Source: a virus (taxonomy: Duplodnaviria; Heunggongvirae; Uroviricota; Caudoviricetes). From it: 48,732 bases of DNA. The DNA lies in IMG/VR virus record IMGVR_UViG_2541047965_000007, positions 1 to 48,732 of that record, one strand, 5' to 3'. A program made the position numbers and the translations under genes. Below the pieces are notes generated by a model that saw only the letters and a program-made list of their open reading frames with translations, was not told the DNA's origin and made no database searches. Shown one piece after another: positions 23,759 through 39,412 of the stretch (positions are counted from its first letter, which is position 1; every line of letters begins with the position of its first letter).

Positions 23759-24607
23759 TTAAACACCGGCACCAATGAAACCGCCATATGAATCTTCTTC
23801 AAGGCTGATGTATTCTACCCTCCATTGATCCATCCGCCTCAATGCATACAGGGAGAAATGAGTATCAGCAACAGCTATGCACGTATTCAATTCTATAAGT
23901 TCTGAATGCCCCAAGGTTGGATCACCATAAAACTTATAAAACAAAGCCTTTAGATCAGAACATGTTTGTTCAGCCGCTCTTCTGGCATCGGGGCCACCTT
24001 CAGTTGCATCATAAACAACATTGATAGAAAGCTCATATGGTATGCCTTCCTCAAGATCGTTAAATCTTTCTTCGCCCAAATCGAAAAAAACTCCGATCAA
24101 ATGCTCTGCGTTTGTGGCGATAATATCCGCAACTTCTTTTTCGAAAATAAACTTTTTATCCTCGTCGTAAGCCCGCAAGCGCTCTTCAAACGAGTTAGGA
24201 AACGCTGGACGACCATACTTAGCAGCTAACCATTGCTTAAGAGCTTGTTTCTCTTCTGTGCTAATGGAGAATGCTGGATCGTTTTCCTCACAACAGAAAG
24301 CTTCTTTAGGAATGATGACTTTCCTTTCATGCCGGAGCTCTACTGCATTCTTCTTCGCACTTTCTGGGTTTTCAAAACATAGATCGAGTATTCTCGGATG
24401 CTTAGCTCTTTTCATCCTGCTTGACCCCTTTTTCAAGGGGCCAAACATCAGTTCCACGTTTTTTTCTGAATTACTCTGTAAATCACAATCATGCGTTATA
24501 ACTACAACTTTATGGTTCGTTTCATCAGGCTGCAGAATTCCAAGTGAAACGGCATCATCATGTTTAAGTACATGCCCCTGACGCCATGATGTTCCTCGTA
24601 CCAACAT
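23759..24607 (-). CDS. hypothetical cargo protein (282 aa), no domain recognised
   Basis: Last gene of a three-gene minus-strand module between Q and cos; AT-richer than the phage core. Confidence 0.6.
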   Translation of the reverse strand: MLVRGTSWRQGHVLKHDDAVSLGILQPDETNHKVVVITHDCDLQSNSEKNVELMFGPLKKGSSRMKRAKHPRILDLCFENPESAKKNAVELRHERKVIIPKEAFCCEENDPAFSISTEEKQALKQWLAAKYGRPAFPNSFEERLRAYDEDKKFIFEKEVADIIATNAEHLIGVFFDLGEERFNDLEEGIPYELSINVVYDATEGGPDARRAAEQTCSDLKALFYKFYGDPTLGHSELIELNTCIAVADTHFSLYALRRMDQWRVEYISLEEDSYGGFIGAGV

Positions 24608-24616
24608 AAATGTGAT

Positions 24617-25279
24617 TTATTCCTCTACCGTTCCAGGAATTGAAATAGATGACTTCCAATCATCTGTCGGTTTCGCCTTGCTTGCTAAGTAATTGGCCGA
24701 TTCAGCAGCAGCATTCATCGCTTTAGCTTCATCAATCAATACCTGAACTGCCCTATTCCAATCCTCACCTTCTTTTACTACGTCCATTAATGACTTACCA
24801 TTAAATGCTTTCATTTTCACCAATAGCTTCGCATCATGGAGTCCAGCTTTGGAAAAAGAGTCAGCGACATTACTAAGGTTGGTAATGAATTGCACTTTTG
24901 AAGCATCATCAGGCTGGTTCTCCCCTGACAACCATTTATAGAGAGCCTGCCGAGTTATCCCCAAATCCTTTGCCAGTTCTGACATTGATGGAGACAGCAC
25001 TTCTCGAATATTAGCTAAATGTTGGGCAACATTCCTGACATCAACCTCAGGAGAAATTGCAGGCGTGTACGTTGATTCTATGGAATCAAATGCAAACTGA
25101 ACCCTTGGCTGAACATACTGACGCCATTGCTTATAAGCATTTACAGGGTATGAAGCCCCCGTACCAACTAATAGTAAAGATGCGGCGACAGCAACAACAC
25201 CTGATACACATGAGCTTGACTGCAAATTTGGAGAATATCGATCTACAGAGCCTATGCTTCCGGTGGGAATTGCATACAT
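24617..25279 (-). CDS. hypothetical protein with N-terminal hydrophobic segment and XRE-type helix-turn-helix (start at internal Met)
   Basis: SD ggaggtga 8 nt upstream of ATG at 25279; hydrophobic VSGVVAVAASLLLVGTG; HTH-like MSELAKDLGITRQALYKWLSG. Confidence 0.6.
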   Translation of the reverse strand: MYAIPTGSIGSVDRYSPNLQSSSCVSGVVAVAASLLLVGTGASYPVNAYKQWRQYVQPRVQFAFDSIESTYTPAISPEVDVRNVAQHLANIREVLSPSMSELAKDLGITRQALYKWLSGENQPDDASKVQFITNLSNVADSFSKAGLHDAKLLVKMKAFNGKSLMDVVKEGEDWNRAVQVLIDEAKAMNAAAESANYLASKAKPTDDWKSSISIPGTVEE

Positions 25280-25298
25280 TTTAGTCACCTCCGTTGTT

Positions 25299-26108
25299 TC
25301 AGTGCCATTTAGTACGGGCAAAATCTGAAACCATGCCTTCAAATGCTTCTTTAACTTTACTATGCAACGAAAGAATCTGTTTTTCAATTAACTGCAAATC
25401 AGTTGACATGTTGCCTTCAACATAATGATCTGTATCAATTATTGCGTGCATACGATGCTCTGTGTTACTAAATCTCGGCAACGGCAGTAAACCATTAGGA
25501 ATCATATCTGGCGGAAAACCTAGCTGACCATTCATCTTATGTATTCGTGAAACCATAAATCCATTAGGGATCAATGGCTCAACACATGTCTGATATACGG
25601 ACTCTTGTATAGACTGTATTGGCGTCCATCCGAAATCAACACCATGAAGTTCCTTTACAAGATACTGCTCAATTGTTTCGCTTTTCTCAGGAAACACAGC
25701 ATCCAAATATCGAAGCCCAATCCGACTTAACAGCGATGGCTTAGCAAATTCTAGAACTTTGCTCAGACCAAGTATCAATGACGAGATGAAAGATACATGG
25801 TTATCATAATATGTTGTATGGAACGTAATGAAATCGTTGCCTAAAACAAAACCAGATCTTCTATCTGCATCAATCATCAACCAACTTGTCACAGGCTCAA
25901 ATGAATGTACCGGTGGCTCATTGGGGTTTTTTATTTCAAATTTCAACTGAGTTGTATTGGAAACCTCAAATAAAGGAAATCCCTCAACTCTTAGCGCATC
26001 TTGTATGTCTGGAACATACTTACTCATTGCAGCTATTGGAGTAAACTTTACCTGTACCAATGCATAGTAAACGGGCGCATTGGACATACGTTCGCTGTTA
26101 GTACTCAT
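25299..26108 (-). CDS. hypothetical cargo protein (269 aa)
   Basis: First gene of the module; N-terminus MSNAPVYYALVQVKF reminds me of a conserved-hypothetical family seen in defence islands, but this is unverified. Confidence 0.6.
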   Translation of the reverse strand: MSTNSERMSNAPVYYALVQVKFTPIAAMSKYVPDIQDALRVEGFPLFEVSNTTQLKFEIKNPNEPPVHSFEPVTSWLMIDADRRSGFVLGNDFITFHTTYYDNHVSFISSLILGLSKVLEFAKPSLLSRIGLRYLDAVFPEKSETIEQYLVKELHGVDFGWTPIQSIQESVYQTCVEPLIPNGFMVSRIHKMNGQLGFPPDMIPNGLLPLPRFSNTEHRMHAIIDTDHYVEGNMSTDLQLIEKQILSLHSKVKEAFEGMVSDFARTKWH

Positions 26109-26248
26109 GCCGCCCTCCTTGAAATTGTTTCATCTCATATCTCTTTATCTTACTAACTGTAGTTTACACATAGGTTGACACTTTCTCCATCATTAAGTTC
26201 ACTATGACATCAATAGCCAAAACTCTTACGTAATCGCTTCGGCGCGCG

Positions 26249-26267
26249 CTCGTATCCCCGCCACGCC
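26249..26267. other. cos-like sequence of the P2/186-like prophage
   Basis: ctcgtatccccgccacgcc followed by gcccgcttt; homologous in sequence and context to the satellite cos at 39596..39614. Confidence 0.6.
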
Positions 26268-26310
26268 TGCCCGCTTTATGTAGTGGTTTTCATGCACCTG
26301 CATGATCTAC

Positions 26311-26336
26311 GCAAAAGCCCGCCAGTTCTGGCGGGC
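26311..26336 (-). terminator. intrinsic terminator downstream of the LexA-controlled operon
   Basis: Minus strand GCCCGCCA-GAAC-TGGCGGGC followed by TTTTGC. Confidence 0.6.
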
Positions 26337-26471
26337 CTTAGCAAAAACGATCCTCAAACGATCATGCGATCTCATGCGGCATAGACATGCACTACAGAGC
26401 TAACGCCTCGCAAGGGCTCGTTGTTCAACCTTGCTGACGCCAGAAGCAAGTTCAGACGCCAGCAACGTTTC

Positions 26472-26705
26472 TTAATGCAGCCAGCTGTCGTCTTCCCACA
26501 CCTTCTGCATAATTTTCATCACTTGTTTTCTTTCTTCGTCCAGTTGCAGTCCGGTTAGTTCCACACCGTTAGAGCTACCTTTGCGAATGCGAATTACCGT
26601 TTTGGGATACAGGGGGCGCAGATTGCGGTAAAGCTCGGATTCAAGGGCGTCCAGGGTAGACTGGCTAATCTTCTGCTCTTTATCGATCATTATTTCAATG
26701 CGCAT
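26472..26705 (-). CDS. DinI-family protein (77 aa, start at MRIEIMIDK)
   Basis: Sequence pattern of DinI (MRIE..., ...WEDDSW); SD gaggtga 5 nt upstream of ATG at 26705. Confidence 0.8.
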   Translation of the reverse strand: MRIEIMIDKEQKISQSTLDALESELYRNLRPLYPKTVIRIRKGSSNGVELTGLQLDEERKQVMKIMQKVWEDDSWLH

Positions 26706-26715
26706 AAAAGTCACC

Positions 26716-26904
26716 TCAGCTGATGACATCCATTGAGCGGTTGTATTCGTGGGTTCTGATTTTTGCCATGAGTTCATCAGTCAATTCAGAAACCCACTGC
26801 AGAGCCAGCCCCTTCTCTTCATCACTACACTCACTAGCCGCTACAAGCTTAAGAAAAAAATCAATGCGCTGGAGCTTCAAAGACTCCAAAAAATAGTCCT
26901 GCAT
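26716..26904 (-). CDS. small SOS-controlled protein (62 aa) at the position of 186 tum
   Basis: SD taggagg upstream of ATG at 26904, about 45 bp downstream of a consensus LexA box. Confidence 0.55.
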   Translation of the reverse strand: MQDYFLESLKLQRIDFFLKLVAASECSDEEKGLALQWVSELTDELMAKIRTHEYNRSMDVIS

Positions 26905-26947
26905 CTTTCCTCCTATGACACCACACGCAATACTGTATGTATAACCA

Positions 26948-26963
26948 CTGTTTATATTTACAG
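26948..26963. promoter_or_regulatory. LexA box (SOS operator)
   Basis: CTGTTTATATTTACAG matches CTGT-N8-ACAG with AT-rich spacer; a weaker overlapping half-site CTGTATGTATAA lies just upstream. Confidence 0.8.
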
Positions 26964-27057
26964 TATATAATAATCTTACTGATGTAAAACGTTTTTTTAC
27001 GTTCATCAGCCTGATATGCCTGGTATTATTAAGAGCACGAATTGTTAATCCGCGTAA

Positions 27058-29472
27058 TTAATACAGGTTCCGCCACTGATCATCTTCCTGCAAACGCTGG
27101 TTCCGATAGAAGATACGCAGGCCTGCTCCTGACGGAATACTGCCTCCGCGAAGGAGTAAATCGACCTCTTTCTCGCTGCCATCAAATCCTCTGGACTTCA
27201 GCTCATACACGAGCTGCAGTCGCTGATGGTCTGTAATTCGCTGTTTGTAGTCTTTACGCCGTTTCGGTTTCACCAGGCGTAACCTTGCTGCCAGTTCCCG
27301 GCGCTCTTTTTTGCTCATACTGTGCAGGTAATCGTGCAACTCCTTGTCATCCATGCTGGTAATGTCCGTTCTGGGGTCCCCATCAGCTGATTTATCTTTC
27401 TCCTGTTGGTTCAAATTTTCAGCAAGGGGACAGTTATTGCCACGAGTCCAAGGGGCGCAAGCGCCCTGGTCGGCTGCCGCCTCCTGAACGTCAACGGCCT
27501 TACGAACCATTTTCCACTTCACTGCATGAGTGCAGATCTTGCCCTCTGCAATGGGTGACCAGATGCCATAAATACGAATACCGTGATCGCCATAGGCGGT
27601 TGGCTCTTCGTTTATTTCATAAGCGGTTCTGATGAGGTGATATTTGCGGGGAACCAGTACGCCGCCCTGCTTCATGATGTAGGTGGCAAAACAACCAGCA
27701 TCAGCAGCAGCCAGGATGGCATCAAGGCGCGGGTTATCCAGTACCGGCGCACCTGCTTTTTTGTCACCCTGTTGCCTTGCCGCCTGACCAGCCAGCAATC
27801 GCAGTTCACGGTAAGCCTGACGCCCCGGAATGCCAAAGAAGCGGAATTGCTGAACACGATGCAGAGACGCCCAGGCATTAACGTATTCAGCGTTATCACG
27901 CAGGGATTTACCCGTTTCCTTACTGATCTCGCCAGCCAGACCACGCCCGTCAATATTCTTACTGATATATTTCGCAATGTAGCTTGTCGGCGTTCCTTTG
28001 CGCGGGTTTATCAGCTCAGACTTAAAGCGTGGCCCCGTGTTATTGCCCAGCTCCTCGCGGTCTTCACGGATGGCAAACTTACGCAACAATGCAGTAATGG
28101 CGCGGCGGTCTTTTTTGCGCATGAAACACAACAGGTGCCAGTGAACTGTGCCGTCATGATGCGGCTCAGCCACCCGCACGCCATACCAGCGCAACCCGGC
28201 TTTGTGCATAGCCTTACGAAATGCAGCAAACATGCCGACCAGATAATCGCTGCTTTGTCTTACTGTCGCGTTGGTCCAGGTCGGGTTTGGCCTGCCGTTA
28301 TTTAGCGTGGAATGGAAACGTGACGGACAGGTGATGGTGTAGAAAACGGCGCAGTCACCACGCATTTCCGCAATAAGCTCCAGGCCTTTAACACAGGCCA
28401 TCATCTCGTTGCGGCGATGCGCCGGGTTGCTGCTGCTGGCGTTTACCACATCCTCCATGTTCAGCGTGTCGCCGTCTTCGTTCACCAGTTCATGAGAACG
28501 GAAAAACTCCAGCGACTTACGGCGCTGCTCACGTTTATGCATCACGGCTTCATAGCTGACATAGGGAGATGCTTTTTTGCTGACCAGGCAGACAGCACGC
28601 AACTGCTCTTCCCGCCATTCGCAACGCATCTTCCATAATTTCCGATACCACCAGTCGGCGCACAGCATACGCGCCAGCGAACCCGGAATGAGTTCATAAG
28701 GCACAGGTTTGCGGCGGTTTCTTTTCCGGCGGAGTTGCTCAAACGCAGGCGGTATGACATCCAGTCGCAGGGTTTCTGCAGCCACCTTTTCCCATGTCTT
28801 GCGGATTTCTTCTGGCTTAACATCATCGGAGGCGTACAAATCACCACAAGCGGCATCAAGACACATGCTCATATGCGCAGCGACAAGGGTAGACAGGCGT
28901 TTCACCTGATCCTGACTCATTTCAGGCAGGATCAGCAGACCGTCCAGCCCTTCATGGCTTGCCATAAAACGAAAAGATGCAGATAGCTGGCTGTCGCGTA
29001 CATGCTCCAGTCGTTCCAGACATGGCTTAATCGTCTCACGTAAATAGCGGGAATAAGCCTTTGGCCTGCCCAGGCTACTGAAATATTCAATACGTTGCAT
29101 CAGCGGCTTGCTGATATGGGAAGGCTGGGCGTTGACGTCAGCCAGAATGACCATGACTGGATTAAAACGCTGCTGCTCATGCGCCATCTTTGCCCGGCTA
29201 ATGAGCTTATCCTGCTCCATTTTACGTTGGACAGGATCACGGGATTCATTAAAGAAATAACGCTCCCAGACCTGATCACTCAGTGCCTCGCGGCGCAGTT
29301 GTTCCTGCTCGTTATCGGTAGCGTACAGAGTGATCAGGTTTGAAAGCGCAGAAACCGGCGCAACTTCCGCCGGGTCCAGATAAGGGTTAATGGCCTTTTT
29401 CGGGCTGTTCCATGAGAATGCTGCGGCGACCTCGTTAAAGCCGCTGCAGTTGTTCATATCAGCATGGCTCAT
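27058..29472 (-). CDS. A: rolling-circle replication initiator gpA
   Basis: 804-aa ORF with HUH-like [11 protein letters not shown] and catalytic-Tyr region YIAKYISK; P2 gpA position. Confidence 0.9.
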
Positions 29473-32822: not shown

Positions 32823-33455
32823 ATGATACAAGTAAAAGCTGGCGAGAATACAGGGGGAAGAGAGGCTATCCATAGACTAATGGCAGCCTATGATTTCAAG
32901 TCCAGACAGCAACTTTGCGATCACTTAGGCGCATCAAAAAGCACTATGGCAAACAGATACTTAAGAGATAGCTTTCCCGCAGAGTGGGTGATTCAGTGCG
33001 CCTTGGAAACAGGAGTTTCTTTACTGTGGCTAACCACCGGACAAGGCGAGCCAGGTTCAAACATTGACCCTAAAAAAAATATCAATTCTGTGAACTTCAG
33101 CAGGGTTAAACCTCTTTCTGAGCTTGTATCTCCTGAAATTGACAAGGCAACTCTCAACGGTGGTTTATTGGTCGATGCTGGAAAAGCAATCATTGATAGC
33201 AGCATACTCCCCTCAGACTCAAGCAACCTGCTGCTGGTGAGTACTTCTGGTGATTCTTATTTAATAGATCGCAACCAAACACCACCAGTAAATGGTACGT
33301 GGTTAGTGGACATCGACGGGATAAAGAGCATTGTAAAATTGACACGACTCCCGGGAAACAGATTAGTAGTGCATCAGGATGATTCATCGTTTGAGTGCGA
33401 ACTGGATGATATTGAGGTAATAGGTCGCGCACTGAAAATCATTAAGAGCCTTTGA
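32823..33455 (+). CDS. cI: CI immunity repressor (possible true start at Met20, 32880)
   Basis: N-terminal HTH, C-terminal domain; located between the switch and int as in 186. Confidence 0.75.
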   Translation: MIQVKAGENTGGREAIHRLMAAYDFKSRQQLCDHLGASKSTMANRYLRDSFPAEWVIQCALETGVSLLWLTTGQGEPGSNIDPKKNINSVNFSRVKPLSELVSPEIDKATLNGGLLVDAGKAIIDSSILPSDSSNLLLVSTSGDSYLIDRNQTPPVNGTWLVDIDGIKSIVKLTRLPGNRLVVHQDDSSFECELDDIEVIGRALKIIKSL

Positions 33456-33456
33456 T

Positions 33457-34482
33457 ATGACCATCAGAAAACAGCCGAACGGAAAGTGGTTATGTGAATG
33501 CTACCCAAACGGGAGAGATGGCAAACGCGTACGCAAACAATTTGCGACGAAAGGCGAAGCCATTGCGTTTGAGAATTTCACCATGGATGAGGTAAACAAG
33601 AAACCTTGGCTGGGAGAAAAGGAAGATCGGCGACAACTGTCAGAAGTGATTGAGCAATGGTATTCCCTGTACGGTCAGACACTCGCTGACCCTAAGCGAT
33701 TAATGGCTAAGTTAAAAATCATTTGTAATGGACTTGGCGATCCCATCGCTTCTGAATTGACAGCAGGTGATTTCACAAAGTACCGGGAAGCCAGATTAAA
33801 AGGTGAGGTCAAAAACGAAGATGGCGTGCTCATGTCACCGGTTAAGCCCAGAACGGTGAACCTTGAACAGCGTAACCTATCCTCAGTTTTTGGCACACTG
33901 AAAAAGCTGGGACATTGGTCTGCACCCAACCCCCTCGCCGGTCTGCCAACTTTCAAAATTGCAGAAGGTGAACTGGCGTTCCTTGCTGCTGATGAAATCA
34001 AACGCCTGCTTGACGCATGTGCTGAATCTCAAAGTCCCAGTCTGCTAATGATTGCCAAGATTTGCCTGGCTACCGGGGCAAGATGGAGCGAAGCCGAAAA
34101 CCTGCAAGGTAATCAGATATCAAAGTATCGAATTACCTATACCAAAACAAAAGGAAAGAAAAACCGAACGGTTCCTATTTCTCAGGAACTGTATGAAGAA
34201 TTACCCAAAAACAGAGGAAAGTTATTCACACCATGCCGAAAGGCTTTTGAGCGTGCGGTAAAACGGGCTGGAATTGAACTACCTGAAGGTCAATGTACCC
34301 ACGTTCTGCGCCACACTTTCGCCAGCCACTTTATGATGAACGGCGGAAACATTTTGGTATTGAGGGATATTTTAGGACACGCTGATATTAAAATGACCAT
34401 GATTTATGCCCATTTTGCACCGGATCATCTGGAAGATGCCGTTACCAAAAATCCACTTCATAACCTCAACTGGCATCGCTAA
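33457..34482 (+). CDS. int: tyrosine integrase (P2/186 type)
   Basis: 341-aa ORF with C-terminal HxxR...Y catalytic region (VLRHTFASHF ... MIYAHF); adjacent to att core. Confidence 0.9.
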   Translation: MTIRKQPNGKWLCECYPNGRDGKRVRKQFATKGEAIAFENFTMDEVNKKPWLGEKEDRRQLSEVIEQWYSLYGQTLADPKRLMAKLKIICNGLGDPIASELTAGDFTKYREARLKGEVKNEDGVLMSPVKPRTVNLEQRNLSSVFGTLKKLGHWSAPNPLAGLPTFKIAEGELAFLAADEIKRLLDACAESQSPSLLMIAKICLATGARWSEAENLQGNQISKYRITYTKTKGKKNRTVPISQELYEELPKNRGKLFTPCRKAFERAVKRAGIELPEGQCTHVLRHTFASHFMMNGGNILVLRDILGHADIKMTMIYAHFAPDHLEDAVTKNPLHNLNWHR

Positions 34483-34828: not shown

Positions 34829-36037
34829 GTGGCAAGAACGACACGCCCCCTGACCAACACAGAAGTTCTGCGCGCTAAAGCGTTAGAAAAGGATCTAACG
34901 TTGCATGATGGCGATGGTCTTTTTCTGCTCGTTAAAACGAACGGTAAGAAGTTATGGCGTTTCCGTTATCAACGTCCAGCAACAAAACAGCGAACAATGA
35001 TGGGGCTAGGTGCCTTCCCCACCCTTTCACTTGCTGACGCCCGACGGTTAAGAGCGAATTACCTTTCCTTGTTAGCCAACGGAATTGACCCGCAAATTCA
35101 AGCTGAAATTGCAGTGGAACAGCAGCAAATCGCACTGGACAGTATTTTTTCAACCGTCGCCGCTAACTGGTTCCAGCTTAAAAGCAAAAGCGTTACCCCT
35201 GATTACGCGAAAGACATTTGGCGTTCACTAGAAAAAGATGTATTCCCTGCCATCGGTGAGATCCCAGTTCAGCAAATCAAAGCCCGAATGCTTGTTGAAG
35301 CCCTAGAGCCTATCAAAGCACGTGGGGCACTAGAGACGGTACGTCGTCTGGTGCAGCGTATTAATGAGATAATGATTTACGCCGTAAACACAGGTCTGAT
35401 TGATACCAATCCAGCATCAGGTATTGGGATGGCCTTTGAGAAACCTAAAAAGCAAAACATGCCGACGCTCCGGCCAGAAGAATTACCGAAGCTGATGCGT
35501 TCTTTGATTATGTCTAATCTGTCTGTTCCGACACGTTGTCTTATTGAGTGGCAACTACTGACCCTTGTACGCCCTTCTGAAGCCTCTGGTACTCGGTGGG
35601 CAGAGATCAATCTCGATGCAAAGCTCTGGACGATTCCAGCCGAACGGATGAAGGCCAAACGTGAGCACATTGTTCCTCTATCTCCTCAGGCATTAGAAAT
35701 TCTGGAAGTGATGAAACCAATCAGTGCTCATCGTGAACATGTTTTTCCGAGCAGAAATGACCCAAAGCAAGCAATGAATAGCCAGACTGCAAATGCTGCT
35801 TTAAAGAGAATTGGATATGGTGGTAAATTAGTAGCTCATGGTTTACGGGCAATTGCTAGTACATGTATGAATGAAGCAGAATTTAATCCTGATGTGATTG
35901 AAGCTGCATTAGCTCATATTGAAAGTAATGATGTTAGAAAAGCCTATAACCGCTCAACCTATCTAGAGCATCGAAAAGAATTGATGAACTGGTGGGGTAT
36001 GCATTGCACTTCTGCAAAAAATGGGATTGTTAGATAG
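34829..36037 (+). CDS. intA: P4-type tyrosine integrase (GTG start)
   Basis: 402-aa ORF recognised as P4/CP4-57-type integrase; SD aaggag 7 nt upstream of GTG. Confidence 0.9.
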   Translation: MARTTRPLTNTEVLRAKALEKDLTLHDGDGLFLLVKTNGKKLWRFRYQRPATKQRTMMGLGAFPTLSLADARRLRANYLSLLANGIDPQIQAEIAVEQQQIALDSIFSTVAANWFQLKSKSVTPDYAKDIWRSLEKDVFPAIGEIPVQQIKARMLVEALEPIKARGALETVRRLVQRINEIMIYAVNTGLIDTNPASGIGMAFEKPKKQNMPTLRPEELPKLMRSLIMSNLSVPTRCLIEWQLLTLVRPSEASGTRWAEINLDAKLWTIPAERMKAKREHIVPLSPQALEILEVMKPISAHREHVFPSRNDPKQAMNSQTANAALKRIGYGGKLVAHGLRAIASTCMNEAEFNPDVIEAALAHIESNDVRKAYNRSTYLEHRKELMNWWGMHCTSAKNGIVR

Positions 36038-36078
36038 CAGCATCTTTTTGACTCAATTCTACATAAATGGAGTAATAA

Positions 36079-36441
36079 ATGGATCTTAGTTTCTTTAAGA
36101 GCAGCTTGAAATACAATGCAACAGCAACGATTTTCTGTGTTTTTGCATTATATTTATCAATGCCTATTTTCGAAAATGTTAATTTCATATCGAGCCATCC
36201 AATTATCGTCTCAGTACTATTTACTTTACTTGTAAATTCTTTACTTTTAATAATTTACTGGACATCCCATACAAAAAAAACAAATTCAAAGTCGGGTGTA
36301 AAAGGAAACAAAATAATCGGAAACAAGGCAAAAAACATTAACATACTTTCCAATGGAGAAATAACTAAAAACATCGTCAGTAATAATGATAGTAATGGTG
36401 ACATTAATATTGGGCAGGTCTTCAAAAATGGAAAAAAATGA
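36079..36441 (+). CDS. small membrane protein with two TM helices and Asn/Lys-rich repeats; probably the N-terminal part of a frameshifted gene
   Basis: SD ggag upstream; hydrophobic ATATIFCVFALYLSMPIF and IIVSVLFTLLVNSLLLIIYW; ends at TGA right after an A7 tract. Confidence 0.55.
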   Translation: MDLSFFKSSLKYNATATIFCVFALYLSMPIFENVNFISSHPIIVSVLFTLLVNSLLLIIYWTSHTKKTNSKSGVKGNKIIGNKAKNINILSNGEITKNIVSNNDSNGDINIGQVFKNGKK

Positions 36442-37009
36442 AAGCCTAGTCATTTCTGATAATGAAATAACTAATAATAATCCTGGGAGAGATCTGAACA
36501 TTGGGACACACATAAGTTTCAATGAGGTTAAGAATCGGAGCAATGCATTAGCAAATTTATTAGAACGTTCTAAAAAACTTTGTGAAACAGATCAAGAATA
36601 TAAATACATGCTCGAAGAGTTACAAGAGTATCTTCAGCCCCGTCCAGGTCGAAAAATCATAGGGTTAGAAGGAAAACTAAAAGAAGGCAATCGACTTGAT
36701 TTGTTAGAAGATGCAGCTTATTTAGAAAATAAGTTTGCAAGACGAGTTAGCAAGCATCAGTTTTCCATATCAGAAGAAATCATTTACTGTCATTGCTTAA
36801 GTAAAATAAACTCATCTTTTTCACAATATGTCAAACCACTGTTTAAAAACACAGTAAACACTGCTATAATTGACAGAGTCATTTATGACAGAATAGTTGA
36901 ACCTCTTTATGAAGAAGTGTCTGAAGTTAGTACCGCTATTTCTAGCGAATTAATTAGAGGCATGATTTTCTTCTTAACGGGTAAATGTCACTTACGGTGG
37001 GTTGGTTAA
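36428..37009 (+). CDS. hypothetical helical protein; probably the C-terminal part of the same frameshifted gene
   Basis: Begins with a repeat (SDNEITNNN...DLNIG) homologous to the end of the upstream ORF but in the +1 frame; stop overlaps next start (TAATG). Confidence 0.55.
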   Translation: MEKNESLVISDNEITNNNPGRDLNIGTHISFNEVKNRSNALANLLERSKKLCETDQEYKYMLEELQEYLQPRPGRKIIGLEGKLKEGNRLDLLEDAAYLENKFARRVSKHQFSISEEIIYCHCLSKINSSFSQYVKPLFKNTVNTAIIDRVIYDRIVEPLYEEVSEVSTAISSELIRGMIFFLTGKCHLRWVG

Positions 37010-37500
37010 TGATTATTTATCATCCATTTAAAGATGCAAACCATTGCTCATATCGTATTATAAGCTTGCTATATAAAAACAATAACAAGATTAGGGATGA
37101 GCACCTTAATTTTATGGATTTCTATTACCTTTTCCCTTGTCAAATAAAGAACATTGATGGATGGCCGCGTTCAAATTCGAAACTTGCACGCCGAATTTCT
37201 ACTATAGAGGACACTTATGAAACAATTGAAAATCCTCGTAGAATTTTCTTTGAATTAAATATAATACGTAGAAACACCTTAGCACATTTATTTTCGAAGG
37301 GCATTCTATCCTTGATAGATGAATATATCCACCTGAATATTGAAAGAATACCAACATCCCTGATTAATACGCTTGAAGCTGACACCTTTAGAGCCACCTT
37401 CGAATTTACTACCATTGCTAACGAAATACCCAAACTAGCAATCAAAGGTAAAAAAGGCCTTAAAGCAAAAACTAATTTAATGGAATATCGTTATGATTAA
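37009..37500 (+). CDS. hypothetical small protein (163 aa), middle component of the cargo operon
   Basis: Translationally coupled on both sides (TAATG at 37007..37011; ATGATTAA at 37493..37500). Confidence 0.6.
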   Translation: MIIYHPFKDANHCSYRIISLLYKNNNKIRDEHLNFMDFYYLFPCQIKNIDGWPRSNSKLARRISTIEDTYETIENPRRIFFELNIIRRNTLAHLFSKGILSLIDEYIHLNIERIPTSLINTLEADTFRATFEFTTIANEIPKLAIKGKKGLKAKTNLMEYRYD

Positions 37501-39412
37501 AAAACCGTCATATCTCAAGTTAAATAGATTAGTCATAACTAAGGCTGGTAAACAGTTATATGACGAAAAATTTCACGATGGTATAAACATAATCAGAGGG
37601 GAGCACTCTGTAGGAAAATCAACAATTTTAGATATGATTTTTTATATTTTAGGCGGAGAATTAAAAAAAGACGACTGGAAATATCCAGCCGATAAATGCT
37701 CGAATGTTAATGCAGAGATTACAATTAATGACCGCATTATTACCTTAACCAGGCCAGTGGATCCTAGTGGCGCAGCTCCTCATATTAAAATCTATGAAGG
37801 AGAGTATGATAAGGCAATGAAAGATGCAGATGGCTGGCTAGACTATGGCTCAAGGAGAAGCAATGAGCGATTAAGCTTCTCAGAAATGATGTTTGAACTT
37901 TTCGATTGGGGACAATATAAATCTGACAGCCATCAAAATTTAACCATGCATCAAATAATGCGACTCATTTATTTAAGTCAATCATCAGATTCTAACAGAA
38001 TATTTCGCAAAGAGTCTACTCGCTCTGACAATGAAAATACCAGGACAGCTATCGCTGAGTTTCTTTTCGGTCTCGATGATTTGGAAACTCACTCAGTTCG
38101 TCAAAATTTATTGAAGTATGAGAGAGATTATGAAAATACCGGAACAGAATTAAGAGCATATTTCGAGCTTTTAGGAAATGACTCTAATCTAACTGTTGAT
38201 ATAATTAACGAATTATTGAATGAAAAATACACTGAACTATCCAAAATAGACTCAAAGAAAGAAATTTTATTGCGTTCAACAGATAATATTGATGGTAACA
38301 ATGAATATAACCTAGCTATCGAACGCAATGACATCCTTTTAAAAATACAATCACTAACAAACAAAATATCACTTAAAAACAATGAGTTACATTCAATAAA
38401 GACCGAAATCCAGGACTGTTTGCTTTTTGGAAAAAATTTAGCATATCGTTTAAAATCTTTGAATGAATCACAAGAAACATATAAAGGCTTAGGTCGAATT
38501 TCTTTTGAATACTGCCCTTGTTGCTTAACACCAATATCAGAACACGATAACACTGATAGTGGTTGCGCACTTTGCAAATCAACAGTCAACAATTCCTCAT
38601 TAGAGGAAAAATATATTGAATCACTGAACGAACTGCAATATCAACAGCGTCAAAATAATAAAATTATAGAAAAACTATATAGTTCAGCAGAATATATAGA
38701 GGGCTATATTAAAGAGCTTCAAAAAGAGCTTGAAAGCTTACACAATAGATTGTTTGAAATCAATTTAGTCTCAAATTATCGAGAATTGGCTATAACTTCA
38801 ATCGTAGAAGAAAGAACTGCAAAATTAATTGAAATCAACTCCCTGCAAGATAAAATTGATTCAATAGCTAAAGTTGACGACTTAAAATCAAAACGTGAAG
38901 ACATCGCAAAGCAAATGGAAAAATTTCGTTCACGAATAACCGCTCTTGAAGCAAAAAACAAGCGCAGAAAAGAATATGTTTACTCAAAACTATCTGAATT
39001 TTCCACTTTTATTCTTGAAGGAGACTCGGGGAATGAAGAGCTATTTAAAACAGCAACTCAACTTTCCTCAGAGATTGACTTTGCAAAAGATCGCTGGCTT
39101 TTGAATGAACGGGTAAATTACTCAGATAGTTCAAACGTTGTCAAAAAAGCAGCTCTACATTTAGCATTTCTTATTTTTTCAATCGTTGATTCAGCTTGCC
39201 GATATCCTCGTTTTTCCATTATGGACTTCGAATGCGGGGATATAAATGAAGCTCGAAGCCATAACCTTCAAAAATTAATCACTACAAGCCTTAGTAACTT
39301 TAAAGGTTTTCAGCTTATTATGACTACATCTAAAATTGATTCATCTTTGAACAACAACACTTACGGGGTTGGTCGTTATTATGACAAAAATGACTACATT
39401 TTGAAGATTTGA
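37493..39412 (+). CDS. Rad50/SbcC/SMC-like ABC ATPase with coiled coil and Cys4 cluster
   Basis: Walker A GEHSVGKST at 37598..37624 in an SMC-head-like N-terminus; long Glu/Lys/Leu-rich middle; CPCC-x16-CALC at 38513..38575; C-terminal FSIMDFE Walker-B-like motif. Confidence 0.75.
   Translation: MIKKPSYLKLNRLVITKAGKQLYDEKFHDGINIIRGEHSVGKSTILDMIFYILGGELKKDDWKYPADKCSNVNAEITINDRIITLTRPVDPSGAAPHIKIYEGEYDKAMKDADGWLDYGSRRSNERLSFSEMMFELFDWGQYKSDSHQNLTMHQIMRLIYLSQSSDSNRIFRKESTRSDNENTRTAIAEFLFGLDDLETHSVRQNLLKYERDYENTGTELRAYFELLGNDSNLTVDIINELLNEKYTELSKIDSKKEILLRSTDNIDGNNEYNLAIERNDILLKIQSLTNKISLKNNELHSIKTEIQDCLLFGKNLAYRLKSLNESQETYKGLGRISFEYCPCCLTPISEHDNTDSGCALCKSTVNNSSLEEKYIESLNELQYQQRQNNKIIEKLYSSAEYIEGYIKELQKELESLHNRLFEINLVSNYRELAITSIVEERTAKLIEINSLQDKIDSIAKVDDLKSKREDIAKQMEKFRSRITALEAKNKRRKEYVYSKLSEFSTFILEGDSGNEELFKTATQLSSEIDFAKDRWLLNERVNYSDSSNVVKKAALHLAFLIFSIVDSACRYPRFSIMDFECGDINEARSHNLQKLITTSLSNFKGFQLIMTTSKIDSSLNNNTYGVGRYYDKNDYILKI

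Follow-up and report, generated by a model that had tools for sequence, protein, structure and literature searches.

A two-gene operon on the minus strand of a 48,732-nt stretch of viral DNA (IMG/VR record IMGVR_UViG_2541047965_000007; this whole stretch is called the window below) is very probably the module by which a Fels-2/186-like (Peduoviridae) prophage is induced in the SOS response, with the antirepressor gene tum split into tumA and tumB. The first open reading frame (ORF1, 62 amino acids (aa)) corresponds to tumA, and the second (ORF2, 77 aa) corresponds to tumB and belongs to the DinI family. Modules of this type are already known, described and tested in near-identical prophages, and the operon is a textbook-type element. 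The assignment is built on sequence features, homologies and conservation, as well as on near-identity to a locus of Escherichia coli HS that has been tested by experiment.

In the P2-like prophage of E. coli HS, DuoHS, an in-frame deletion of tum abolishes induction by mitomycin C (Nat Microbiol 2025, PMC12055606), and the lexA(Ind-) allele likewise abolishes it (PMC12055606). The deleted 'tum' is ECHS_RS04495 (supplement of PMC12055606), a gene for a 62-aa 'hypothetical protein' that lies directly after gene A and is followed 10 nt on by a DinI-like gene (ECHS_RS04500). ORF1 is identical to ECHS_RS04495 at 61 of 62 positions, and it matches STM2728 of Fels-2 equally well (61/62); ORF2 is identical over all 77 positions to both the HS DinI protein and STM2726.1 of Fels-2. 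The two LexA boxes of the operon are also the same in the window and in E. coli HS, while the wider promoter region differs at a few positions. Through its near-identity to this experimentally tested gene, ORF1 very probably has the same function. The original prediction, made from the sequence of the window, that the prophage is probably SOS-inducible via this operon is supported in this way, since the orthologous 62-aa gene is needed for induction of the HS prophage (PMC12055606).

Layout of the operon and its SOS operator

The elements of the operon and the gene before it are the following, with the basis of each in brackets.

29472..27058, minus strand: replication gene A (gpA), 804 aa (Pfam Phage_GPA, E 2e-127)
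26983..26988, minus strand: -35 hexamer TTTACA of the SOS promoter, the equivalent of 186 p95 (conserved position and 186 p95 layout)
26960..26965, minus strand: -10 hexamer TACTGT, inside LexA box 1 (matches the annotated 186 p95 -10)
26948..26963, minus strand: LexA box 1, CTGTAAATATAAACAG, a perfect CTGT-N8-ACAG (consensus search, conservation)
26933..26948, minus strand: LexA box 2, GTGGTTATACATACAG, with 2 core mismatches (overlaps box 1 by one base)
26909..26914, minus strand: Shine-Dalgarno sequence AGGAGG of ORF1 (read from the sequence)
26716..26904, minus strand: ORF1, tumA-type antirepressor gene, 62 aa, stop included in the coordinates (homology, dN/dS)
26711..26717, minus strand: Shine-Dalgarno sequence GAGGTGA of ORF2, overlapping the ORF1 stop codon (read from the sequence)
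26472..26705, minus strand: ORF2, tumB, DinI family, 77 aa, stop included in the coordinates (Pfam DinI, homology)
26313..26339, minus strand: intrinsic terminator, GGCCCGCCAGAACUGGCGGGC-UUUU, with a GC stem (-24.8 kcal/mol, z -4.96)

The operon extends from 26988 to 26313 on the minus strand and is next downstream of gene A, and ORF2 begins 10 nt past the ORF1 stop. It had been placed at the "186 tum position", and this holds: gpA ends at 27058, the operon follows directly, and then comes cos, as for tum in phage 186. The LexA box, the two small ORFs and the terminator that had been claimed are all present, all on the minus strand, and the distance from the box to ORF1, estimated at about 45 bp, is 43 nt when counted from the end of LexA box 1 to the ORF1 ATG. 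The terminator is a strong one of canonical form (0 of 200 shuffles were as stable); it lies about 130 nt past ORF2 and outside the interval 26472-26963 to which the operon had been assigned.

To compare related loci, one genome per species was scanned, which gave 40 loci with an ORF1 relative (65-100% identical) from Escherichia, Citrobacter, Enterobacter, Klebsiella, Serratia, Pantoea, Erwinia, Tatumella and others; together with the window and Fels-2, 42 loci were examined. The -35 hexamer TTTACA and the -10 hexamer TACTGT of the window are separated by exactly 17 nt. TTTACA occupies the -35 position in 27 of the 42 loci and TTCACA, the form found in 186, in 5 more, and the TACTGT -10 is kept in nearly all of them. 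The promoter is overlapped by a LexA box in the layout of the annotated 186 p95. A generic promoter scan overlooked it because no more than 3 of the 6 positions of its -10 fit the consensus. A stable A/T-rich hairpin that contains the -35 hexamer (GGCUGAUGAACGU-AAAAAA-ACGUUUUACAUCAG, 26975-27012, minus strand; -12 kcal/mol, z -4.5) also lies between the gene A stop and this promoter. The same hairpin occurs in Fels-2 and E. coli HS, and by eye no equivalent palindrome was seen in the more distant loci; it might be the terminator of the gene A transcript.

LexA box 1, which reads CTGTTTATATTTACAG on the plus strand, is the sole site in the 48.7-kb window with at most 3 mismatches from the 20-mer consensus TACTGTATATATATACAGTA, and none appeared in 100 shuffles. 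Of the 42 loci, 41 have a LexA box (at most 1 core mismatch) before the ORF1 homologue, and the lone locus without one is a contig cut inside the operator. The looser pattern CTGT-N8-ACAG has 2 matches in the window against 0.5 expected by chance; the second of them (CACTGTTTAAAAACACAGTA, 36839-36854) falls inside an ORF (36386-37009) of the AT-rich island described below and is probably not a LexA site.

LexA boxes 1 and 2 form a colicin-type double SOS operator, that is, two 16-bp LexA boxes sharing one base pair. A second box at the +15 offset (at most 2 core mismatches) was found in 22 of the 42 loci, against 0.3% expected. The operator of the window is 84-86% identical over 42-43 bp to the one that immediately precedes colicin-like genes on Col plasmids, and colicin genes characteristically bind two LexA dimers at double boxes (PMC2994835). 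By analogy, LexA would be expected to bind both boxes of the window. Further downstream, a Shine-Dalgarno sequence of the form [A/G]GGAGG[G/A] is kept before ORF1 in most related loci, with AGGAGA, AGGAAG and TGAGGG variants in several.

Two proteins in place of a fused Tum

In phage 186 the antirepressor Tum is a single 146-aa protein, and the original prediction had called the operon "possibly a split tum", leaving it undecided between one interrupted gene and two proteins. The word split is borne out by other phages: the genes are annotated as tumA and tumB in PSP3, and both Fels-2 and PSP3 have been described as carrying a split tum (PMC3121763). The GenBank record of PSP3 describes tumA as 'similar to 5' end 186 tum; UV induction of prophage' and tumB as 'similar to dinI and 3' end of 186 tum'. 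When ORF1 and ORF2 were aligned to 186 Tum, as had been proposed, the two ORFs likewise corresponded to the two halves of Tum.

The downstream half is the clearer one. The claim that ORF2 is a DinI-family protein agrees with its Pfam match (DinI, PF06183; E 6.6e-23, 81.3 bits against a cut-off of 24.2), and its residues 1-75 align over the full length with residues 1-77 of E. coli DinI (1GHH; E 2.7e-6), the acidic C-terminal segment VWEDDSW aligning with the DinI C-terminus. ORF2 is 41% identical to residues 71-146 of 186 Tum and 78% identical to PSP3 TumB; a DinI-like downstream product is thus found here as in other tum modules. On the NCBIfam DinI equivalog model (NF007893), ORF2 scored 42.7 bits against a cut-off of 111, and by its sequence it is to be read as a phage paralogue and not as the host DinI.

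The upstream half is more remote, and its homology to the N-terminal half of 186 Tum and to PSP3 TumA, although consistent, is of a kind seen with profiles. ORF1 matches the PHROG families phrog_698 (E 3.6e-38), phrog_8554 (E 2.4e-8) and phrog_1993 (E 2.2e-3), and residues 1-70 of 186 Tum match the same three in the reverse order (phrog_1993, 1.5e-23; phrog_8554, 3.4e-12; phrog_698, 5.9e-6), with both sets of matches covering the same profile positions. A comparison by hhalign of the ORF1 family with standalone relatives of the Tum N-half gave E 2.1e-4, collinear over residues 2-44 of both. These standalone proteins, 63-78 aa long and named 'Tum protein' by NCBI, are common among the close relatives of the 186 Tum N-half. 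By eye, the core shared by ORF1 and the Tum N-half reads R-[VI]-[ED]-x3-[KR]-L-x5-C-x7-AL-x-[LW]-[IV]-[AS]-E-[IL]. No Pfam or NCBIfam family was matched by ORF1, and a PDB sequence search with the ORF1 family profile returned noise only. The AlphaFold2 model of ORF1 is a generic two-helix hairpin (predicted local distance difference test score, pLDDT, 88.6), for which Foldseek found no match at E <= 0.001 in PDB and BFVD.

Both ORFs are real genes, because the ratio of nonsynonymous to synonymous substitution rates (dN/dS) ranges over 0.04-0.15 for the two together at nearly saturated synonymous divergence, which indicates strong purifying selection on both; for ORF1, the values against relatives with synonymous sites near saturation are 0.04-0.13. 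The two-ORF layout is also widespread. The 801-bp region of the operon was matched in 1144 of 5426 complete E. coli genomes, 731 of them at >=80% coverage and with the two-ORF layout. In the species-level survey, a DinI-like ORF follows the ORF1 relative in 21 loci, after a spacer of 9-13 nt that holds G-rich sequences resembling a Shine-Dalgarno sequence, and in a frame relation of 0, +1 or +2. The dinI gene is missing from the other 19 of the 40 loci and is degraded in at least two more (truncated in locus L019 and frameshifted in locus L043 of the survey). That dinI is often lost while tumA and the LexA box persist fits a TumA that is the essential effector and a TumB that is accessory.

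These observations bear on two ways in which the pair could still be one protein. According to the first, a single 186-like tum with a product of about 140 aa was broken by a frameshift, either through a sequencing or assembly error or through recent pseudogenization. As had been noted, ORF1 and ORF2 are in different frames (offset 199 nt), and the ORF2 frame stays open upstream of its ATG into ORF1, for 72 nt and back to an ATG at 26777, making a 101-aa ORF; moreover, 186 Tum has the same two halves in one chain. That a single-base change could fuse the two ORFs, as had been pointed out, is arithmetically true but has no biological weight, as the frame relation varies among relatives. The reading of a broken gene is refuted by the locus survey, the E. 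coli genome counts, the dN/dS values and the absence of fused homologues, and we assign it a negligible probability: the layout with two ORFs stands in the 731 complete E. coli genomes, in Fels-2, E. coli HS, many phage records and the 21 species-level loci, in which the spacer varies and every one of the three frame relations occurs; a separate Shine-Dalgarno sequence precedes each ORF; and no fused TumA-DinI homologue occurs among 87 representatives recovered from 1.84 billion proteins.

According to the second, programmed recoding, by a +1 frameshift or by stop read-through, yields a fused TumA-TumB that is the real antirepressor, made beside the separate products. This would mirror 186, which makes a truncated DinI-like product besides full-length Tum and whose record annotates nested tum products, one of them a DinI-like form of 76 aa that starts at an internal GTG; the ORF2 frame of the window is, in addition, open across the ORF1 stop. 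However, the spacer varies and all three frame relations occur, so that the event needed would differ between loci and therefore no recoding event could be conserved; in about half of the loci there is no dinI gene with which tumA could be fused; and by eye the junction shows no canonical slippery heptamer or prfB-like +1 site. A hairpin over the ORF1 stop and the ORF2 Shine-Dalgarno sequence (GTCATCAGCTGAGGTGAC-TTTT), also considered as an attenuator or coupling device, was discarded since it is not significant (z -1.0) and not conserved. We regard recoding as very improbable, and the question is settled in favour of two independent proteins, not one.

The antirepressor, its presumed CI target and the proposed course of induction

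The presumed target of the antirepressor is encoded on the opposite strand.

32823..33455, plus strand: 186-type CI immunity repressor, 210 aa (Pfam)

This protein matches Phage_CI_repr (E 4.6e-31) and Phage_CI_C (E 4.3e-28) and is 32% identical to 186 CI. Pfam found only those two domains in it, and no autocleavage domain of the LexA/lambda type (S24); the cognate repressor is accordingly a 186-type CI without a RecA-dependent autocleavage domain. The window also contains the CII, Fil-region and Dam genes.

A question raised by the two-gene layout is which of the two proteins triggers induction. If the DinI-like ORF2 were the effector, for example via RecA or CI, then ORF1 would be an accessory protein or a chaperone; of the two, only ORF2 has a recognised domain, and in databases the Tum family goes under the label 'RecA filament binding protein DinI'. 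Nevertheless, deleting only the 62-aa gene in E. coli HS abolishes induction with the identical dinI left intact, tumA and the LexA box persist in the loci where dinI is absent (19/40) or degraded (at least two more), and non-polar dinI deletions in Gifsy prophages had no significant effect on induction (PMC3121763). An effector role of ORF2 is therefore very unlikely, and TumA is the preferred candidate; in PSP3, too, it is the upstream gene of the split tum that carries antirepressor activity (PMC3121763).

Another possibility is that the operon is a moron under SOS control that acts on the SOS response of the host to the advantage of the lysogen and takes no part in inducing the prophage. 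The modulation of RecA by DinI homologues, the cargo region next to the operon and the lack of a Pfam or NCBIfam family for ORF1 would all suit a moron. Against this stand the position of the operon, its homology to tum, the loss of induction on deletion of tum at the near-identical locus of E. coli HS and the presence of a non-cleavable 186-type CI in 33 of the 40 loci, and we hold this possibility to be extremely improbable.

Several points weigh against the assignment as an induction module. Pairwise BLASTP of ORF1 against Tum 1-70 or PSP3 TumA gave no match, which is why profile methods were needed, and the link between ORF1 and Tum that these suggest comes with moderate E-values. What TumB is proposed to do is carried over from E. 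coli DinI, and ORF2 scores below the equivalog cut-off. The evidence that PSP3 TumA acts alone as an antirepressor is a personal communication cited second-hand (PMC3121763). Finally, binding of LexA to the operator and of TumA to CI is putative for this exact locus.

For an induction module, the mechanism can be outlined with the help of the literature on 186, PSP3, DuoHS and colicins. In the lysogen, LexA would sit on the two SOS boxes overlapping by one base (26933-26963) and cover the -10 and the start region of the promoter (-35 TTTACA, 17-nt spacer, -10 TACTGT). DNA damage would activate RecA, LexA would cleave itself and repression would be relieved, which should allow synthesis of a bicistronic mRNA ending at the terminator just before cos. 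TumA, the predicted two-helix protein of 62 aa, would then bind the 186-type CI, presumably by direct contact, and the lytic promoter would be released for lytic growth. TumB, the 77-aa DinI paralogue, most likely acts by binding to RecA filaments, adjusting how strong the SOS signal is or when it comes, in an accessory role; its interaction with RecA, as the contact of TumA with CI, is proposed by analogy. The prediction for this prophage is SOS inducibility by an antirepressor and not by repressor cleavage, as in its near-identical relative in E. coli HS.

TumA and CI do not vary together among the loci. An identical or 98%-identical TumA accompanies three types of CI, of 210, 198 and 189 aa, whose N-terminal helix-turn-helix domains are 64-75% identical and whose C-domains are 33-42% identical. 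In L005, TumA is 100% and gpA 98% identical to the window, but CI is only 42% identical, and the TumA sequence is uncoupled from the CI type across L005 to L044, L002 and L048. Across the loci with a CI match (33/40), the CI N-domains are far better conserved than the C-domains. One TumA with several CI types and a conserved N-domain hint that TumA acts on the CI N-domain.

We offer, as a tentative and on balance doubtful proposal, that the double SOS box brings about late induction with a high threshold and that TumA, by targeting the CI N-domain, cross-induces co-resident Fels-2-like prophages, a crosstalk that may be likened to that of the Gifsy antirepressors. By analogy, the double box alone should give tighter repression and later induction, while the idea that TumA works across CI types is a speculative reading of the sequences. 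Neither a double SOS box on tumA nor cross-induction between TumA and CI was found described in the accessible literature. On the timing of induction and on crosstalk between prophages, the double box and the several CI types that go with one TumA give modest leads.

The practical value of this analysis lies in the annotation of an antirepressor that is common in E. coli genomes. The 62-aa antirepressor is labelled 'hypothetical protein' in RefSeq and in places 'levan regulatory protein', and 'RecA filament binding protein DinI' is the name that PHROG 189 as well as the RefSeq records of 186 and PSP3 give to the entire Tum family. Databases put the 'Tum/DinI' label on the accessory gene and not on the experimentally required antirepressor.

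Surrounding features and related systems

Outside the operon, the following features are found on the same strand.

26427..26469, minus strand: conserved hairpin without a U-tract, directly after the operon genes (RNA fold)
26249..26267, minus strand: cos cohesive-end 19-mer, GGCGTGGCGGGGATACGAG (marks the right end of the packaged genome)
25299-26108, minus strand: 269-aa TIGR04255 family protein (E 4.3e-53)
24617-25387, minus strand: 256-aa protein with a weak helix-turn-helix match (profile match)
23759-24607, minus strand: 282-aa protein, no family

The terminator precedes the cos cleavage region by about 45 nt (46). The cos 19-mer of the window aligns with the annotated 186 cos junction (CATAAAG(T/C)GGGCA followed by GGCGTGGCGGGGA...), and so does the flank CATAAAGCGGGCA. 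The GTTGCTGGCGT...ACGTCAGCAAGGTTGAACAACGAG element of the hairpin at 26427..26469 is found directly 3' of tumA in loci without dinI, and its TTGAACAACGAGC...GCGAGGCGTTAGC part also occurs near the right end of 186; candidate roles of this hairpin are an RNA end or a part of the cos region. From ORF2 to cos (26270-26470, minus strand), the non-coding DNA consists of AACGAG...GCGAGGCGTTAG and then a GCCAG...CTGGC hairpin. It is conserved in 186 and in distant loci without dinI, and PSP3 has only the cos-proximal GCCAG...CTGGC segment; the stretch is probably part of the packaging-recognition region. An Rfam scan of 26100-27200 found no RNA family.

The three genes listed between cos and the portal gene (23759-26108, minus strand) are cargo, and this interval is a variable cargo slot, because relatives (Fels-2, E. 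coli HS and vB_EcoM-813R9) carry different genes there. PADLOC gave no match for two of the three, and the 256-aa helix-turn-helix protein had only weak RmrA/mad1 matches (E 8e-4 to 8e-3). At the other side of the prophage, a second, P4-type integrase with an Arm-DNA-bind_3 domain (34829-36037) comes directly after the prophage integrase (33457-34482) and is followed by an AT-rich island (region 34829-39412) with several ORFs, including one for a 639-aa ATPase-like protein (37493-39412). The region 34829-39412 is probably an integrated island of its own next to the prophage.

Among known systems, the loci of Fels-2 and DuoHS are essentially the same as that of the window, sharing the promoter, the 10-nt spacer and the place after gene A. 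The double LexA operator is identical in DuoHS, while Fels-2 differs at two spacer positions of box 2. Both Fels-2 and HS have further genes after dinI, whereas the window passes straight into the conserved cos-proximal region. The repressors differ as well: CI has 210 aa in the window and 189 aa in HS, with 67% identity in the N-domain and 33% in the C-domain.

Two more distant systems share single aspects of the operon. The operators of colicin genes have the same form as that of the window, with a CTGT-N8-(A/C)CAG box sharing its last G with GTGG-TTATA-N3-TACAG, but the colicin double box controls a toxin and the one in the window a prophage antirepressor, where LexA may bind cooperatively. 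In the prophages Gifsy-1/2/3 (GfoA, GftA), a LexA-repressed operon likewise encodes a small antirepressor and a DinI homologue, and the repressor remains uncleaved (PMC3121763). The Gifsy phages are, however, lambdoid, their operons have dinI first and so the reverse gene order, and PMC3121763 gives no sequence relationship of their antirepressors to TumA.

PSP3 resembles the window in that gene A is followed by a LexA-boxed split tum whose downstream gene encodes a DinI-like protein of 77 aa. Its TumA (60 aa) belongs to the 186-like sequence subfamily, and only the conserved core motif aligns with ORF1. In PSP3, tumA and tumB are in the same frame, with the stop and one codon between them, and there is a single LexA box, whereas the frames differ in the window and the boxes are two. 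Phage 186, in turn, has the same genomic position, a LexA box over the TACTGT -10, homologous halves and the same kind of CI target. Its N-terminal half of Tum is about 20% identical to ORF1, it has one LexA box and orf97 as the next gene in the operon, and the halves that are separate in the window are fused there in the 146-aa Tum with nested internal starts.

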